The notes beneath the pieces are model-generated. The model was not told the origin of the DNA. It made no database searches and saw only the letters and a list, made by a program, of their open reading frames with translations. 64,000 nucleotides of DNA from Escherichia coli (lineage in GTDB: Bacteria > Pseudomonadota > Gammaproteobacteria > Enterobacterales > Enterobacteriaceae). The stretch lies in assembly GCF_003018235.1 (NCBI RefSeq), contig NZ_CP027437.1, one strand, 5' to 3'. Position 1 is the first letter of the stretch, and each line of letters starts with the position of its first letter. Position numbers and translations under genes: made by a program. This document shows, piece by piece, positions 37,333-59,244 of the stretch.

Positions 37333-37815
37333 TTAACGGTGGGCGTTTTTCATGATACGCGCTTTATCCACCTGCCATTCGCGCTCTTTGATATCTGAAC
37401 GTTTATCGTGCTGTTTCTTACCTTTGGCGACGCCGATTTTCACTTTGCACCAGGCATTTTTCCAGTACAGGGAGAGCGCCACTACGGTATAGCCTTCTCG
37501 ATTGACGCGACCGTACAATGAGTCCAGTTCGCGCTGGTTGAGAAGTAACTTGCGGGTACGGGTAGGATCGCACACCACATGCGTGGAGGCCACAGCCATT
37601 GGCGTGATGTTAGCGCCAAACAGAAATGCTTCTCCATCACGTAGAAGGACGTAGCTGTCGCTGATATTGGCTTTTCCTGCGCGCAGGGATTTAACCTCCC
37701 AGCCTTGCAGGGCAAGTCCCGCTTCGAACTCTTCTTCGATAAAGTATTCGTGACGGGCGCGCTTGTTAAGCGCGATGGTCGCTGAACCAGGTTTATGTGC
37801 TTTTTTCTTCGTCAT
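37333..37815 (-). CDS. smpB: SsrA-binding protein SmpB
   Basis: 160-aa ORF immediately upstream of ssrA. Confidence 0.94.
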
Positions 37816-37946
37816 AAGCGTCGTGAATCATCGGTAATCTGAAATCGAAAACACCCCATATCAATCCTGCGGGGGACAAGGCTCTATCTTAGCATGAACC
37901 CGATGTTACCCAGCGCCGGGATAGCGTTTTTTTTACAGCAGGATAA

Positions 37947-38423
37947 ATGATATTATTTGTTGGATTTTTGTTGATGGAAATTGTTATGCCTCAGATTAGC
38001 CGGACCGCACTGGTACCCTACAGCGCGGAGCAAATGTATCAGTTAGTGAATGACGTTCAGTCTTATCCTCAGTTTTTGCCGGGTTGTACCGGAAGTCGGA
38101 TTCTGGAGTCCACTCCTGGGCAGATGACTGCGGCGGTAGATGTCTCTAAGGCTGGGATTAGCAAAACGTTTACTACCCGCAACCAGTTGACCAGTAACCA
38201 AAGTATTCTTATGAATCTGGTGGATGGGCCGTTCAAGAAATTGATCGGTGGCTGGAAGTTTACGCCGCTGAGTCAGGAGGCGTGCCGTATCGAGTTTCAT
38301 CTCGACTTTGAGTTTACCAATAAGTTGATTGAACTCGCCTTTGGTCGCGTGTTTAAAGAGCTGGCGGCTAATATGGTCCAGGCTTTTACGGTTCGTGCGA
38401 AAGAGGTTTACAGTGCCAGGTAA
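37947..38423 (+). CDS. ratA: Ribosome association toxin RatA (YfjG; SRPBCC/polyketide cyclase fold)
   Basis: 158-aa ORF; synteny smpB-ratA-ratB. Confidence 0.88.
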
Positions 38424-38703
38424 AATTGCCGTTGAGGTGGCTTATGCGCTACCTGAGAAGCAGTACCTGCAGCGTGTGACGCTGCAGGAGGGTGCGACGG
38501 TTGAAGAAGCTATTCGCGCCAGTGGCTTGCTGGAATTGCGTACCGATATCGATTTAACTAAAAACAAAGTCGGCATTTATAGCCGTCCGGCAAAACTGAG
38601 CGATAGTGTGCATGATGGCGATCGGGTGGAGATTTATCGCCCTCTCATTGCCGATCCGAAAGAGCTGCGCAGGCAACGAGCAGAAAAATCAGCGAATAAA
38701 TAA
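38413..38703 (+). CDS. ratB: RatB (YfjF, UPF0125)
   Basis: GTG-initiated 96-aa ORF overlapping ratA stop ([18 protein letters not shown]). Confidence 0.8.
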
Positions 38704-38709
38704 CAGACA

Positions 38710-38745
38710 GAAAAAAGGTGCTCATTGAGCACCTTTTTTAACGTC
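38710..38745. terminator. Rho-independent terminator after ratB (aaggtgctca ttg agcacctt + T-run), convergent with bamE
   Basis: Inverted repeat plus T-run read in sequence. Confidence 0.65.
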
Positions 38746-38764
38746 TTTGAGAGCAACTTTATTA

Positions 38765-39106
38765 TTAGTTACCACTCAGCGCAGGTTTGTTATCAATGTT
38801 GGTCAACACACCGCTACTGTTAAAGGTCAGCGTCAGTGTTTGCTGCGTTACACCTTCATGACCTGGTTGCTGGCGGAAGACATAGAACCAGGTATTCGTA
38901 CCAAATGGATCGGACATCAACGGTGTACCCAATGCGTACGCAACTTGTTGTTGCGTCATGCCAACGCGTATTTTGGATACGTCGTTAGCGGTCAGATAAT
39001 TCCCCTGGTTGATATCAGGACGGTAAACCACTCGCTCCAGAGTGGAACAGCCTGCGGTCAACATCAATAGTACTGCTGCTGCAGCAGTCAGCGTTTTACA
39101 GCGCAT
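38765..39106 (-). CDS. bamE: Outer membrane protein assembly factor BamE (SmpA/OmlA lipoprotein)
   Basis: 113-aa ORF with lipobox LTAGC. Confidence 0.93.
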
Positions 39107-48490: not shown

Positions 48491-48973
48491 TTAAGGGGTA
48501 GTAATCACCACTGCGACGCGGCGGTTCTCGGCGCGGCCCTGGGCGGTCTTGTTACTGGCTATGGGATATTTTTTTCCTAACCCCTGTGTGGTGAGATTGC
48601 TGCGCGGAATTTGTCCACCCATAGCCCATGCATCGGCCACGACATTCGCCCGTTTCAATGATAAGCCTTCGTTGTAACTGTCTTCACCATAGTTATCGGT
48701 GTGTCCATCCATACGGGCATGTGTTAGCCCTGTCGAGGCCAATTTGGCTGCCATGGTTTGGATCTGTTGCTGGCTTTCCGGGAGCAATTTGTAGTCATTT
48801 TTTGCGAACAGAATGGCATCTGATAAGCCCAGCGACCAGTCGCCGGCGGATTCAGTAAATCCATAAGATTGCATAGCGGCAACTTGCTCAGGAGTAAACT
48901 TTCCCTGAGGGGACTGGCAGCCAGTCAGTATTAGCGAGGTGAAAATCAGGGGTACTACCAGGTGCTTTATCAT
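48491..48973 (-). CDS. yfiB: OmpA-like outer membrane lipoprotein YfiB
   Basis: 160-aa ORF with lipobox LTGC and OmpA-C domain. Confidence 0.92.
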   Translation of the reverse strand: MIKHLVVPLIFTSLILTGCQSPQGKFTPEQVAAMQSYGFTESAGDWSLGLSDAILFAKNDYKLLPESQQQIQTMAAKLASTGLTHARMDGHTDNYGEDSYNEGLSLKRANVVADAWAMGGQIPRSNLTTQGLGKKYPIASNKTAQGRAENRRVAVVITTP

Positions 48974-48988
48974 ATCGATATATCCTTG

Positions 48989-50215
48989 TTATCTCACCAG
49001 CTTTTCGGCACGCTGGTGTTTGGCCTGATACATATTGTGATCGGCCAGCTCTTGTAATTTTTCCGCAGAGGCATGCTCAATGGTCATCGCGTAACCAATG
49101 CTTAATGTCATGGTGGTCTGATGACCATTATGAAGATCAAACGGGCGATTAAAGATTTGTGTCAGTGCTGAGCAAATCCGCTGAACTTCGGATTCCGACT
49201 GTACACCAAAGAGGACCATCGCAAATTCATCGCCGCCTATGCGGTATGCTTTATGTTGCAGCCCGCCAAATTCAGCTAACCGTTTTGCTACCTCAATCAA
49301 GACACGATCGCCCGTCGCATGACCCCAGGTATCATTGATATATTTGAAATTATCGCCATCAAGAAATAGTAACGCCGACGTTTTTCGGGCGTCGGAACTG
49401 CTCATCAACGTGTTGATGCCGCTACGAAACGCTGCGCGGTTAGCCAGCCCGGTTAATGGGTCATGTAGCGCGGTACGTAGAAGCTGCGCATTTTTGGCCT
49501 GTAAACGAAGCTGCCACTCTTCCATTTCATCCAGCAGACTGTTGAAGTCGAGTGCGAAGCGGTGAAATTCTGCAATGCGTTCTTCCGAAACTCGTCGGGA
49601 AAAATTGCGGTTGGAACGTACGTCATGCACGACATCGGTGATATTTTTCAATGCTTCCACCAGGCCATTGTGCAAATGGCGGGTGAGGGTAATTGCGATG
49701 CCTGATGCCAGCAGAATACAACCGGTCAGTACAGCGAGCGAAAACCAGATAAAATGGCTGATTGAACTGTCGCGAGCGGTTAAGCGTACTTCGCCAATGG
49801 TTTCACCATTGTGACGAATCGGCTGAATGATGGGGGCAGGGAAGAGCCAGTGGCTTATGAAATTGCTTAAAGTATCGCCTGGATCCTTACGGGTGTAATG
49901 CCAGGATGCCAGAATATTTTGCTGCTTATCACGTACTTCTGCAGTTGAAAATTGCCCTTGCTGGCCCAGCGCTGCCAGTGTTTCAGTTGCTGCAGGGCCA
50001 TCGGCAAAAACGACAGCTGCTTCCAGACTGTAAGTCATTGTTGCTGCTGTCAGTGCCAGGTTTTTTTGCGCGTACTGTTTCAGGGTCAGCACCGAGGTCA
50101 CGGAAAGCAGCAACCAGATCAGCATCATAGTGATAAATATGCTGGTCATACTGATGTTGCGTAATGCTCTTTTAAACGTGGGGCGCTTATTAAGAGAATT
50201 ATCGTTATCCATCAT
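48989..50215 (-). CDS. dgcN: Diguanylate cyclase DgcN (YfiN; HAMP-GGDEF)
   Basis: 408-aa ORF with GGDEF active site (RIGGDEF). Confidence 0.93.
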
Positions 50216-50723
50216 TTTTCTTCCGTGCGAGCATCAAGACATCCGGGTTGACCTTTACACCGCTACGCGATAAGGCATCCAGGTTTACGGCAAATCTGAC
50301 GTCATTATTGTGGATGATCAGACAAAAGGCGCTACCAATAATGCACTCGGTATTTTGTTCGGCAATTAATAATAACGCCTTTGACGGATATTGTTCGGTT
50401 AATTCCATCTGGAATGTCGGTGACTCGTTGCCAAAATAAAAACCATTGCAGCCTGAAATCATCGCCTCTTGTTGAGTGTGAATGATGACAGGCAGATAAG
50501 GCAAAGATGTCGCGGCATTCTCTTGTAGGGCGGTACTAAAACGTGAAGATGAAAAGATACATAACTTTGGTGGCCCTGATAGCGCAGGCCAGCGGGTGTA
50601 ACTGACAATACCGGAAACCATCATACGCACGTTTTTCGCAACGTCAGAAGGCTCCTGAGCGAGTATTGGTGCTCCCGTCAGCAGGAGAATCAGAAGTAAG
50701 AACAGTCGGTGAGAAAAACGCAT
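50205..50723 (-). CDS. yfiR: Periplasmic repressor of DgcN, YfiR
   Basis: 172-aa secreted ORF overlapping dgcN start. Confidence 0.9.
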
Positions 50724-54869: not shown

Positions 54870-54905
54870 ATCAATAAAAAAGGCCCCCCGATTTGGGAGG
54901 CCTTA
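54870..54905 (-). terminator. pheA attenuator terminator hairpin (ggcctcccaaatcggggggcc + U-run on minus strand)
   Basis: GC hairpin plus T-run between pheL and pheA. Confidence 0.75.
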
Positions 54906-54950
54906 TTGTTCGTCTTCGCATTCTGTTTCACACGACGAAACGCCTCCCAT

Positions 54951-54998
54951 TCAGGGGAAGGTAAAAAAGAATGCGAAGAAAAACGGTGTGTGTTTCAT
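54951..54998 (-). CDS. pheL: pheA leader peptide PheL (15 aa, 7 Phe codons): MKHTPFFFAFFFTFP
   Basis: Small ORF read by hand on minus strand; placed relative to overlapping track ORF 54865..55080. Confidence 0.9.
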   Translation of the reverse strand: MKHTPFFFAFFFTFP

Positions 54999-55004
54999 GT
55001 TTGT

Positions 55005-55050: not shown

Positions 55051-55163
55051 CAACAAAAAACGCGCCCGAAGGTGCTTTAATGAGGAGTGCCGCTTCTTTA
55101 TGTCTGTGAATTATCAACAACTTACGGGGAAACATAACCGCAAGAAGCGACAAGAAATTACAA

Positions 55164-56153
55164 CTATATGGACAGATTATGGACGCTTTCAGCCAGTGGA
55201 TTAAAGCTTATAGCATCCTGTAAAAAATCCGGTGCAAAATGCGCATATGTCATTGTTTGCTGGATAGTTGAATGTCCAAGAATCCGTTGAAGTGTTACTA
55301 TATTTCCTCCATTCATCATAAAGTGTGTTGCAAACGTATGCCGCATAACATGAGTTGCCTGTCCTTTGGGCAGATCTGGTTTTACTTCCTTTAGTGCTCG
55401 TCGAAAGTTTGTGTAATTAACATTAAACAATGCACCAGATTGTTTTATCTTGATGAGCTTTATAACTTCTTCGGATATAGGTATGGCGCGGGGTTTATTG
55501 GTTTTTGTCTGATTAAACATAACTCTGTTTCCCACAATATTTTCTCCCCGTAGTTTTGTTGCCTCTCCCCACCTTGCTCCTGTCGAAAGACACAGAATCG
55601 CTATTCGTTTGTTATCTCCAGTAAGATGATTGAGCAAGCGATCAATCTCTTCGTTTGATAAAAACGACATATCTGATGGTACAATCCTCAACTTCCTCAG
55701 ACCATGTAGCGGATTTGCATGGTGGAATTCTTCAGCATTAATCAGCACTGAAAACATGGCTGAAAGTACGCAGAGATCCCTGTTTACCGTGTTGGGTGTC
55801 AGTCCTGCACTGAGTTTGTTTGCACGATAACTCAGAAGGAACTTTCTGGTTACACCGTTGGCTCTGGGATCTCCCATTTCTCTGATCACTTTATTCAGCC
55901 TTTGCAGGTATGTCTCACCATAAGGCTGATTTTGCCCGTCGAGCATCCACCACATTTCGGCAAGTTCGGAAAGATGGCGTTTGTCTGCGGGTTTTTCCAG
56001 CCATGGTTTGTTATGCATGTTCTGAAGAACATATTTTTCATAATCCTGCGCTTTCGACTTCAGGGTGAAAATTTTTCGAATCCGCTTCCCTTCCGCACCC
56101 TGAGGTCTGACATCAACCTGATAACGTCCGTCTTTGAGCTGCTTAATCGACAT
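55164..56153 (-). CDS. int: Tyrosine recombinase, phage P2 Int family
   Basis: ORF 55164..56168; N-terminus MSIKQLKDGRYQVDVRP and C-terminal catalytic region ...HVMRHTFATHFMMNGGNIVTLQRILGHSTIQQTMTYAHF recognised as P2-like Int. Confidence 0.9.
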   Translation of the reverse strand: MSIKQLKDGRYQVDVRPQGAEGKRIRKIFTLKSKAQDYEKYVLQNMHNKPWLEKPADKRHLSELAEMWWMLDGQNQPYGETYLQRLNKVIREMGDPRANGVTRKFLLSYRANKLSAGLTPNTVNRDLCVLSAMFSVLINAEEFHHANPLHGLRKLRIVPSDMSFLSNEEIDRLLNHLTGDNKRIAILCLSTGARWGEATKLRGENIVGNRVMFNQTKTNKPRAIPISEEVIKLIKIKQSGALFNVNYTNFRRALKEVKPDLPKGQATHVMRHTFATHFMMNGGNIVTLQRILGHSTIQQTMTYAHFAPDFLQDAISFNPLAESVHNLSI

Positions 56154-56243
56154 GATTAGCACCTCCAACGGTATTTTGTTGCTTTAATACATTTCTGTAC
56201 CTTGTAATGTATTCAATATGCAGGCCAAACCAGCATCCTGGTG

Positions 56244-56567
56244 TTATTGGTGTGATTTTGAGTTTGTTGTAGTTGAATCCTGAGCGGCCTCCGATTCTCC
56301 AGAGCCATCAAGAGAGAGAGCCGGGGCGATCTGCCCGGCCTGAGGGAAGGTTTTGCCGTGCAGGAGCCACATTGTGTATTTTTCGAACAGTGAGCACTGT
56401 AATACACGGAGGGCGATATCTGCCCGGGCAGGTTGATGTCCTGTTTCATAACTCTTAACAGAACCAAGAGCTATACCTGTTATCTCGCTAAACTTTTGCT
56501 GGGTTATTTTTTCAGCACGTCTGATCGCTCGTAGTTTTTGAGCAAAATCCATTGACAAGGTATTCAT
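56244..56567 (-). CDS. Immunity repressor, P2 C-like (HTH)
   Basis: ORF 56244..56651 trimmed to MNTLSMDF with AAGGA RBS; C-terminal YTMWLLHGKTFPQAGQIAPAL resembles P2 C. Confidence 0.75.
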   Translation of the reverse strand: MNTLSMDFAQKLRAIRRAEKITQQKFSEITGIALGSVKSYETGHQPARADIALRVLQCSLFEKYTMWLLHGKTFPQAGQIAPALSLDGSGESEAAQDSTTTNSKSHQ

Positions 56568-56668
56568 ATAACGACTATCCTTCTTTTGGTTGTTGATTAA
56601 CGACGTTTGCAATAGCTGACTATAGTCGACAGTAGCCAGCAAACGCACCAACGATGGAGGATAACAAA

Positions 56669-57127
56669 ATGCAGGAAACTATTGCAGAGGGGGGGATATT
56701 CAACGCTGGTGGGGATGACACGCAGTTACAGGAAAAGGAAGTCAGAAATAAATTATCACTGAGACTTGATGGACCTGTAGCGGATTTAGTTTTTCTGGAT
56801 AAAGGAGCAGCATACGTTGGGCTGACCAGGAAAGCGCTTGCAACAGCTTTACGTAGAGGCGAAATGCCTGGACATAAGAAAAGAAAAAATCCTGAAGATG
56901 AAACATCGCGTGGAGTGTGGATTTTTAACGTCAAGGCATGGAATGAACTTGCTGATATTTTGCCTGAAATTGAGCCACCAGAATGGCATCACTGGAAAGA
57001 TTACTGGTTATACAACCGAAACACTCGGAAATTTCAAAAGATTGATAAACAAGATTGTACACAGATTAATGGTAAACGTGTTTACAGGCCGCGTCAGAGC
57101 AGACTGGAAAAAGCACGTCAGTCATGA
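56669..57127 (+). CDS. Cox-like excisionase/transcriptional regulator (divergent from repressor)
   Basis: ORF 56654..57127; internal ATG with GGAGGA RBS; HTH-like segment AYVGLTRKALATALRRGEMP; position equivalent to P2 cox. Confidence 0.55.
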   Translation: MQETIAEGGIFNAGGDDTQLQEKEVRNKLSLRLDGPVADLVFLDKGAAYVGLTRKALATALRRGEMPGHKKRKNPEDETSRGVWIFNVKAWNELADILPEIEPPEWHHWKDYWLYNRNTRKFQKIDKQDCTQINGKRVYRPRQSRLEKARQS

Positions 57128-57290
57128 AACGGTATTTATTAGTAAGCAACAAGAAAGTGAATTAAACTCATCGGCAATAACTCGTTATTAAATTGTCATA
57201 CTGTCTGAAACTATTTCCTTCTATTACTGATGTGTGAGGCACGGAAAGGGAATTCCGTTTTTTTAGTGGTGCGATGAGAAAATAACAGAG

Positions 57291-57485
57291 GTGTCAGAAA
57301 TGGAAAAAGAAAAACTGAGACATTTTCGTAAAGAATTAAAAGCTTCTCAGCGTGTAATGACTTTGGCTATTAAGCGATTAGAGGAAGGACGTTATAAGTC
57401 TGCAGTGGAACTCATGCGTGCAGAAGCAGCGGATATATTTAAACTGGCAGATGAATTAAGTGATGTAACAGAACAACAATCCTGA
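57291..57485 (+). CDS. Hypothetical small coiled-coil protein (64 aa)
   Basis: ORF with AGAGG RBS; charged helical composition. Confidence 0.45.
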   Translation: MSEMEKEKLRHFRKELKASQRVMTLAIKRLEEGRYKSAVELMRAEAADIFKLADELSDVTEQQS

Positions 57486-58281
57486 ACACAGGAAAGTTAT
57501 GGGCTTGTGTGATTCAGAAAGTGTGAGGTTACGTGCAAAATGGCCAGACATGTAAAAAAGAACTTGAATGCAGTGTCGGCATGGTGGTATTTTTCATCTG
57601 CTGCCACAGTGCTGGCAGTCGGGAATACCACCCCGTATGTGTCAACGGCGACATCAGACGCCGCAAGCGTCTTTTTTGTTGTCGTAACCTTATACGCCAT
57701 GAAGCTCCATTTTATGGTGCGGTGTTATCCATTAAGAGCCGTTGCAAGCGCCTCTACCGGAAGGGGCTGGATAACATCCACCACCATGTCAATGGTAGCT
57801 CAGGCGGGGCCGACTTCGGTCGGGCCGGTTTCCGTTGGCACCGGTAGTGGTATCCCCGTCTGGGCTATCGCCAGTGAGCATACCACCTCCTGCGATAGCA
57901 GTATGTTATGTCAACGGAGGCTGCCTGAATGGCTACAATCCCAACCCAAAAGCGCCCAAAATCCGCGCTCCCCCAGCTCAGCAGTGACTGTCGTCGCCGG
58001 ATACACCGTGTGCAGATGGTTACGCTCCATTATTACATTCAGTGTCTCGCTGATAATCCGTGTTCAGTTGATTTTTGTTTTCCGTACTTATTGTCTTACA
58101 TCCACGATGATATTAAGGCTATAGATAATGAGTTAATTTCTCTTGGCCTGTTTGAACAGGCGATGGGAAAGAAAAAACGACGATAGTTTTCATCGTTATT
58201 AATTAACGTTGTCAGGAAGTATTAAACACACCGCTCACGCGGCGGGAATCTTACATCTTAAATATCTGACGAGGTGGAAAC

Positions 58282-58437
58282 ATGAAGCTGTTTTCATTAC
58301 GTAAAAATAAAAAAACGGAAAAAAAGAAACGCACTTATCCGGCAAATAATAACGTCCGTCTGTTACGTTATTACCAGAAATTACAGGAATTAAGTTGTGA
58401 ACCGGATAAAAAGTTCAGCCTGGATGTGTGGATGTAA
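58282..58437 (+). CDS. Hypothetical Lys-rich small protein (51 aa), below ORF-track cutoff
   Basis: ATG preceded by GAGGTGG; stop immediately before exonuclease gene start. Confidence 0.4.
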   Translation: MKLFSLRKNKKTEKKKRTYPANNNVRLLRYYQKLQELSCEPDKKFSLDVWM

Positions 58438-58448
58438 TGGGGGAATAA

Positions 58449-59024
58449 ATGAACGATCTGATGATTGATACTGAAACAACAGGAACATCCCATCATTCAG
58501 GGATTATTTCCTTTGCCGCAGCATTTTTTAATCCAGATACCGGAGATAAAGGTGACCACATTTATCTTCGCCTGGACTGGGTGAGTGCGACACGTAATGG
58601 CGCAGTGATTGATCCGGAGACATTCTGTTTCTGGTTAGAGCAATCGACAGAAGTAAGAATGGAAGCCGTCAGGAAAGACGAAAGTATTTCTGAACGTGAC
58701 GCCACATATGCGCTGATTAATTTTATTGAGCAGCGTGCTGATATCAGACGGGTGCGTGTCTGGGCGAAGTCACCCACGTTTGACTGCTCACTTCTTCGTG
58801 ACATGTGTGATCGGAGTATTGGGTCAAATACCAGCGTAGAAATGTTGTGGCCGTTCTGGAATGAGAGAGATGTCAGGACTGTTGAAGGGCTTGCCGCGCA
58901 TCTTGGCATTCCGTTGCCTTACTCCAGAAAGGAAGTCACTCATCATGCTCTTAATGACGTTATGGGGCAGATAAAAAATGTGGCTACCGTATTTGCAGCA
59001 CTGCGTGGCGTGATGGAGGTGTGA
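58449..59024 (+). CDS. DEDDh-family 3'-5' exonuclease (DnaQ-like fold)
   Basis: Exo I motif IDTETTG, Exo II-like FDCSLL, Exo III HHALNDV in the 191-aa translation. Confidence 0.7.
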   Translation: MNDLMIDTETTGTSHHSGIISFAAAFFNPDTGDKGDHIYLRLDWVSATRNGAVIDPETFCFWLEQSTEVRMEAVRKDESISERDATYALINFIEQRADIRRVRVWAKSPTFDCSLLRDMCDRSIGSNTSVEMLWPFWNERDVRTVEGLAAHLGIPLPYSRKEVTHHALNDVMGQIKNVATVFAALRGVMEV

Positions 59025-59025
59025 T

Positions 59026-59244
59026 GTGAATAAAGCACAACGTAATGCTGCAGCGGCAGCGAATCGTCACAGGGTCTCGCCGGAACAGGTGCTCATCTGG
59101 TGTGAGCAACTGAAACGCATTGTGGACACAGCAAACCAGAATACGCGGCACAACGAAAAGAGCAGGGCGCTTGAGCCGATTATTGCGTGGATTGAGCAGC
59201 AGAAGAAACAGGCAATGGAAGAAATCAGAAAACGGGGTGAATGA
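59026..59244 (+). CDS. Hypothetical protein (72 aa), translationally coupled
   Basis: GTG start one nt after exonuclease stop; stop overlaps next start (ATGA). Confidence 0.45.
   Translation: MNKAQRNAAAAANRHRVSPEQVLIWCEQLKRIVDTANQNTRHNEKSRALEPIIAWIEQQKKQAMEEIRKRGE

Follow-up and report, generated by a model that had tools for sequence, protein, structure and literature searches.

The E. coli K-12 protein RatA (YfjG, b2619), which is PasT of UPEC, has been described in two ways. In the original description it is a toxin: overexpression of the full-length ORF led to growth arrest and to more free ribosomal subunits, an effect which was later reproduced (PMC11988751). In contrast, Fino et al. 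(2020, PMC7424257) observed no growth inhibition at any level of pasT/ratA expression and found no link between PasT and PasI. In their study pasT deletion mutants had respiratory defects which could be complemented with pasT alone or with human coq10, and they concluded that PasT is a bacterial Coq10 homologue. Fasnacht et al. (2025, PMC11988751) found that overexpression of the annotated ratA ORF yields two proteins of which only the Met1-initiated form is toxic; a specific association of this full-length form (RatAfl) with the 50S subunit was not seen. The native promoter gave rise to the Met14-initiated form only. The -10 box of the sigma-70 promoter is located inside the annotated ORF, transcription starts downstream of Met1, and ratA mRNA is reduced or lost with the M1S mutation as well as with silent mutations of the -10 box. 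These authors could not fully exclude that another promoter, located upstream of Met1, is active under other conditions. A recent preprint reports that RatA binds Q8, interacts with UbiG and UbiF and is located in the cytosol and at the membrane, and proposes the name UbiM (Fasnacht et al. 2026, bioRxiv 10.64898/2026.05.04.722385).

The second described system is YfiBNR. The periplasmic protein YfiR represses the membrane diguanylate cyclase YfiN (DgcN), which is freed either under reductive stress, when YfiR misfolds, or when YfiB sequesters YfiR. Freed YfiN raises the c-di-GMP level, which results in less motility and more biofilm; in addition, cell division is blocked at mid-cell, and GTP depletion arrests growth (PMC4992967, PMC10127611).

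Both systems are encoded in the window, i. e. the whole stretch of 64,000 nucleotides that was analysed (Escherichia coli, assembly GCF_003018235.1, contig NZ_CP027437.1). It is part of the chromosome, in reversed orientation with respect to the K-12 map. An earlier note on this DNA had described ratAB and the yfi genes as complete, and as known rather than novel modules, and on both points it was right. All five ORFs are full length, without frameshifts or internal stops. The alignment to K-12 MG1655, which served as the frameshift check, revealed none in the ratAB and yfi coding sequences. The ratAB region (37816..38764) aligned with K-12 over 949 nt without gaps and with 10 mismatches, all at third codon positions. 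Five of these synonymous differences are in ratA and five in ratB; the proteins are 100% identical to b2619 and b2618 (YfjF), and for RatA this holds for the annotated ORF of 158 aa as well as for the real product of 145 aa. ratA also agrees with K-12 in its promoter and 5' region, its neighbours smpB, ratB and bamE and its START domain, and ratB agrees in its GTG start and its 11-nt overlap with ratA. The three yfi genes have the lengths and the start and stop codons of their K-12 counterparts and contain no internal stops. Within the yfi region (2456 nt) there is a single length difference, of 1 nt; it must fall between genes, as none of the three coding sequences has changed in length. YfiR is identical to the K-12 protein, with a single nucleotide difference in its gene. 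YfiB carries two substitutions (A7V and V10I), both in the signal peptide, and DgcN carries ten (at 116, 272, 273, 309, 320, 326, 336, 337, 346 and 357); both variants also occur elsewhere in E. coli.

Searches against Pfam and NCBIfam gave the same picture: all five proteins match Pfam models over their full length and NCBIfam equivalogs above the curated cut-offs. Of 5426 complete E. coli genomes, 5425 contain the ratAB region (best identity 99.8%), and the yfi region was also found in 5425. It is thus very probable that ratA-ratB and yfiR-dgcN-yfiB are two unrelated conserved operons of the E. coli core genome, both intact. This high confidence is a joint one and includes RatA as a Coq10-type protein made from 37986 and the YfiBNR mechanism. 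Ubiquinone binding, the repression mechanism and the phenotypes are taken from the literature; our own data concern gene integrity, domains, motifs, start-codon evidence and gene order. Both loci consist of ordinary, already known core genes, and the sole addition made here is comparative support for the published re-annotation of ratA.

Table 1. Coordinates of the features of the ratAB and yfi loci and of their flanking genes in the window.
Feature	Position	Strand	Description
ssrA tmRNA	36756..37118	-	usual flanking gene
smpB	37333..37815	-	usual flanking gene
ratA, long ORF	37947..38423	+	158 aa; coordinates agree with the ORF listing
ratA 'N-terminal extension'	37947..37985	+	13 codons in the K-12 annotation; non-coding, with -10 element and 5' untranslated region
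putative extended -10 element	37948..37956	+	TGaTATTAT (TGATATTAT in the window); its TG is that of the annotated ATG
Shine-Dalgarno-like GGAA	37976..37979	+	6 nt before the real ratA ATG at 37986
ratA/pasT (proposed name ubiM)	37986..38423	+	145-aa START/SRPBCC ubiquinone-binding protein, homologue of mitochondrial Coq10
Shine-Dalgarno GAGG of ratB	38403..38406	+	inside the 3' end of ratA, 6 nt before GTG 38413
ratB/yfjF/pasI	38413..38703	+	96 aa, annotated GTG start at 38413; inside ORF 38329..38703
hairpin	38711..38739		between convergent ratB and bamE; flanked by A-run and T-run; 13-bp stem AAAAAAGGTGCTC/GAGCACCTTTTTT
bamE	38765..39106	-	usual flanking gene, convergent with ratB
yfiB	48491..48973	-	outer-membrane OmpA-like lipoprotein, 160 aa, 483 nt
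dgcN/yfiN	48989..50215	-	inner-membrane diguanylate cyclase, 408 aa, 1227 nt
yfiR	50205..50723	-	periplasmic repressor of DgcN, 172 aa, 519 nt

The surroundings of both loci are the usual ones. Besides the flanking genes listed in Table 1, the window contains recN, and also rplS and trmD upstream of yfiB, and yfiL and aroF beyond yfiR. The gene order around ratAB, with smpB divergent from ratA and bamE convergent with ratB, is kept in 78-80 of 80 Enterobacteriaceae species. The hairpin between ratB and bamE is probably a bidirectional intrinsic terminator, as judged by its match to the consensus.

The yfi genes show every defining feature of a YfiBNR c-di-GMP signaling module, as which the earlier note had identified them. 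They are located on the same strand in one operon in the order yfiR-yfiN-yfiB (50723 to 48491), with an overlap of 11 nt between yfiR and dgcN and a spacing of 15 nt between dgcN and yfiB. YfiR matches the YfiR/HmsC-like family (DUF4154; PF13689, E=4.9e-31) and the NCBIfam model for the regulatory sequestration protein YfiR (NF053586, 168 bits with a cut-off of 85), and has a hydrophobic N-terminal signal sequence and four cysteines (55, 92, 127, 134). In DgcN two hydrophobic segments (20-46 and 150-179) flank the periplasmic CHASE8 domain (PF17152, residues 45-146, E=7.2e-34) and are followed by a GGDEF domain (PF00990, residues 249-403, E=2.3e-42, model 1-159 of 161) with an intact motif at 327-331; the protein scores 502 bits with NF007423 (cut-off 325). 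Pfam reported no HAMP domain in DgcN at E<=0.001. Nor was an RxxD inhibitory site found in it; the protein reads GLQH where K-12 has GLRH, the position which Hwang and Harshey rebuilt to restore feedback inhibition. YfiB has a lipobox (LTGC, with Cys19) and an OmpA domain (PF00691, E=1.2e-17), and matches the model for the outer membrane lipoprotein YfiB (NF053585, 231 bits with a cut-off of 128).

Operon order, the signal peptide and four cysteines of YfiR, the two membrane segments of DgcN with CHASE8 and a GGDEF domain lacking the inhibitory site, and the lipobox and OmpA domain of YfiB are all shared with YfiBNR of K-12 and of Pseudomonas aeruginosa (TpbB/YfiN). By analogy, YfiR would hold DgcN off until reductive stress or the outer-membrane lipoprotein YfiB removes it, whereupon cyclic-di-GMP would be made. 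This intact signaling system, universal in E. coli, is of relevance for biofilm formation, cell-division arrest and antibiotic tolerance.

For ratA the picture is different from the one given in the earlier note, which had listed a ribosome-association toxin with its partner. This label is outdated. In our searches RatA contains a full-length START/Polyketide_cyc domain of the Coq10/SRPBCC family (PF03364, E=1.3e-38, model 1-126 of 126; also PF10604, E=4e-11), and residues 7-143 align with the structural relative PDB 1T17 (E=1.7e-19). RatA is the bacterial counterpart of Coq10, with ubiquinone binding known from the literature on the identical K-12 protein and a shuttle model which is partly based on the preprint. 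According to this literature, the toxicity arises artificially when the mis-annotated ORF of 158 aa is overexpressed.

The name has outlived the gene model. The NCBIfam model for RatA (NF007999) aligns with its positions 1-144 to residues 14-157 of the long ORF, and the PGAP gene call in strain PCN033 has 438 nt and starts at Met14, despite which RefSeq/PGAP and NCBIfam still call it "type II toxin-antitoxin system toxin RatA". Standard annotation pipelines, which the earlier note had suggested as a check, would therefore repeat the error. This calls for caution with automated scans: a toxin screen relying on database names would count ratAB as a type II toxin-antitoxin system, since the name persists in the K-12 reference as well as in PGAP and NCBIfam.

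The start codon was examined in the orthologous locus from 80 species-representative Enterobacteriaceae genomes, in which RatA is 87-99% identical to that of the window. Upstream of the Met14 ATG, 64 distinct 60-nt sequences from 79 species were available. The 13-codon extension contains an in-frame stop in 20 of these 64, and in 3 more the upstream ATG is out of frame owing to a 1-nt indel. In total the extension is thus interrupted or out of frame in 23/64; in the remaining 41/64 it is open, with an ATG at -13. Downstream of Met14 no stop was found in any locus. The same boundary is visible in the column entropies. Over the first 120 nt after Met14 they are 0.21, 0.06 and 1.14 bits for the three codon positions, which is the classic signature of coding sequence, and over the 36 nt upstream of Met14 they are 1.03, 1.22 and 1.00 bits, without 3-base periodicity. 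A GGAA or GGAAA is kept in most of the orthologous upstream sequences. The real start of ratA is 37986, giving a protein of 145 aa. The start at 37947 that had been assumed before is the annotated one of K-12; as a translation start it lies 39 bases too early. The 158-aa form is technically encodable in Escherichia and in the 41 sequences with an open extension.

Why is the ATG at 37947 conserved at all? All 64 distinct sequences contain a TG-N-TA-N-N-AT motif at a distance of 37-39 nt before the Met14 ATG. That a -10 box lies inside the annotated ORF is published; that this motif is an extended -10 element is our own inference. If so, the ATG would be conserved because its TG belongs to the promoter element and not because it is the start of a protein, and the overlap would explain the published drop in ratA mRNA with M1S. 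The sigma-70 promoter of ratA would then have an extended -10 inside the old ORF; translation therefore starts from the ATG at 37986. A simple sigma-70 scan, which needs a recognisable -35 hexamer, found no promoter on the + strand upstream of ratA. The ratA promoter reads as one of the extended -10 type, with a T-run at the -35 position, and its assignment is based on published primer-extension and mutation data and on conservation. This run of 8 T (37927..37934) just upstream of the -10 is conserved across genera while the surrounding bases vary (it was noted in the window and in loci L035, L037, L043, L059, L067, L071, L072, L075, L076, L079 and L084); it may act as a weak -35 or as a UP-like element.

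Two further elements of the smpB-ratA intergenic region were considered. A terminator-like hairpin at 37912..37928 (+) was rejected: its stem has only 5 bp, no co-directional gene is located upstream, 3 such sites compare with 1.5 expected by chance, and the conserved part is the T-run. A block at 37886..37898 (TATCTTAGCA in the window) is conserved, with similar sequences in most of the 80 species. Its reverse complement holds TAAGAT, which may be the -10 of a divergent smpB promoter.

RatB is a member of the RnfH family of ubiquitin-fold proteins (PF03658 Ub-RnfH, E=3.2e-35, model 1-83 of 83; NF002490, 154 bits with a cut-off of 75). Its structural relatives are PDB 2HJ1 (E=7e-28) and 8AHX_H, the RnfH of the Rnf complex (E=1e-13). 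In contrast to the latter, ratB adjoins ratA and is not part of an rnf/rsx operon. It follows ratA with the same 11-nt overlap in 80/80 species loci and starts with GTG in 77 of them; the other three have GCG at this position. The overlap and the Shine-Dalgarno sequence inside ratA are consistent with translational coupling of the two genes, in line with the preprint, where deleting ratA had a strong polar effect on ratB (bioRxiv 10.64898/2026.05.04.722385).

As the partner of a toxin RatB does not qualify. Mutants lacking ratB are viable, and ratA suffices to complement all phenotypes (PMC7424257, PMC11988751, bioRxiv 10.64898/2026.05.04.722385); in the original toxin study neither a RatA-RatB complex nor neutralisation was seen. 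RatB is probably an accessory factor and not an antitoxin. One may speculate that it is dedicated to the ubiquinone shuttle RatA/UbiM, e. g. by docking RatA onto a redox complex of the membrane such as Rsx/Rnf, of which RnfH is a subunit in the solved structure. The evidence for this idea is the fixed 11-nt overlap in all 80 loci and the RnfH homology; we consider it conceivable and still rather unlikely. If true, it would be an undescribed link between quinone delivery and Rnf-type complexes.

Could ratAB nevertheless be a genuine type II toxin-antitoxin system, in which the 158-aa RatA made from 37947 blocks 70S association via the 50S subunit and is neutralised by RatB? The database names still say so, the 158-aa ORF is open in the window, and the effects of its overexpression described above are reproducible. 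Like the canonical systems MazEF and RelBE, ratAB is an operon of two small overlapping ORFs, and the long ratA ORF is toxic when overexpressed. In addition, one study, cited in the preprint, found that co-overexpressing pasI relieved the toxic effect of full-length PasT, so some functional interaction of RatA and RatB is imaginable. Yet the native locus does not make the toxic form, since the native promoter yields the Met14 form only and transcription starts downstream of Met1, and RatAfl does not specifically associate with the 50S subunit (PMC11988751). Expression of pasT was not toxic in the hands of Fino et al. (PMC7424257). The segment on which the toxicity depends lacks the conservation of a coding sequence: among the 64 distinct orthologous sequences it is broken or out of frame in more than a third and has no coding periodicity. 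Moreover, the putative toxin precedes its partner, unlike in MazEF and RelBE, the partner gene can be deleted, and no toxin-antitoxin complex has been found. Instead of the patchy distribution of mobile modules with the antitoxin first, ratA is followed by ratB in a core-genome locus with constant neighbours, which is atypical of such modules. The toxin-antitoxin reading is thus largely refuted, and we consider it extremely improbable. Both the experimental literature and our comparison favor ratA as a respiratory housekeeping gene with a mis-annotated start.

A similar question, namely whether a module can look intact and still be non-functional in this strain, arises for yfiBNR, as the dgcN allele is divergent. 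Relative to its K-12 counterpart it has changed at 41 nt (3.3%) and 10 aa, with a cluster at residues 272-357 of the GGDEF domain which includes R320Q and, beside the GGDEF motif, L326I; its best database match is 99.2%. For the yfi region as a whole, matches of >=99% identity are limited to 2 of 5426 genomes. A catalytically dead DgcN is conceivable on this basis. However, the GGDEF motif is intact, the Pfam match covers nearly the whole domain model, and position 320 belongs to an inhibitory site which is already degenerate in K-12. The unrelated strains GF60 and AF39 carry the same protein allele with a single-residue difference, which indicates a maintained natural allele; of decay and foreign import, the two processes considered for dgcN, decay was rejected on these grounds. 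We therefore judge the loss of function of a module very improbable, and an intact DgcN with natural allelic variation remains our reading. Against three other strains the differences are grouped in separate blocks, a pattern which suggests a recombination mosaic, and the divergence of dgcN looks like ordinary allelic mosaicism.

Some observations were made elsewhere in the window. The autotransporter adhesin gene ypjA/ehaD (32028..36595, +), which adjoins ssrA, is a pseudogene if strain PCN033 is taken as the reference. At about 32464-32470 one of seven consecutive G is missing, so that the reading frame is shifted from around codon 146 onwards, and at 36473..36475 a CAG has become the nonsense codon TAG, 40 codons ahead of the regular stop. 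The missing G may be an artefact of sequencing. Unlike in K-12, the CP4-57 prophage is absent beside ssrA; the segment 28870..37118 is collinear with strain PCN033 and contains, in this order, a tRNA, a YpjC-family gene, a recombinase remnant, ypjA and ssrA. The tRNA (28870..28945) is Met-CAT according to ARAGORN and is annotated as tRNA-Ile in PCN033.

At the other end of the window, the collinear stretch shared with K-12 stops immediately downstream of the pheL leader (Rfam Phe_leader, 54874..54999) and does not extend to raiA. The last 9 kb (55078..64000) are the integrase-proximal end of a prophage, with a tyrosine integrase ORF (55164..56168, -) and genes for a Cox-family protein, a 3'-5' exonuclease, a RecE-family protein and a DUF1627 protein. 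At least 80% of this segment is present in only 2 of 5426 complete E. coli genomes. The O158:H23 strain CFIAFB20140388 has this segment at the same site, where it continues into P2-like replication genes.
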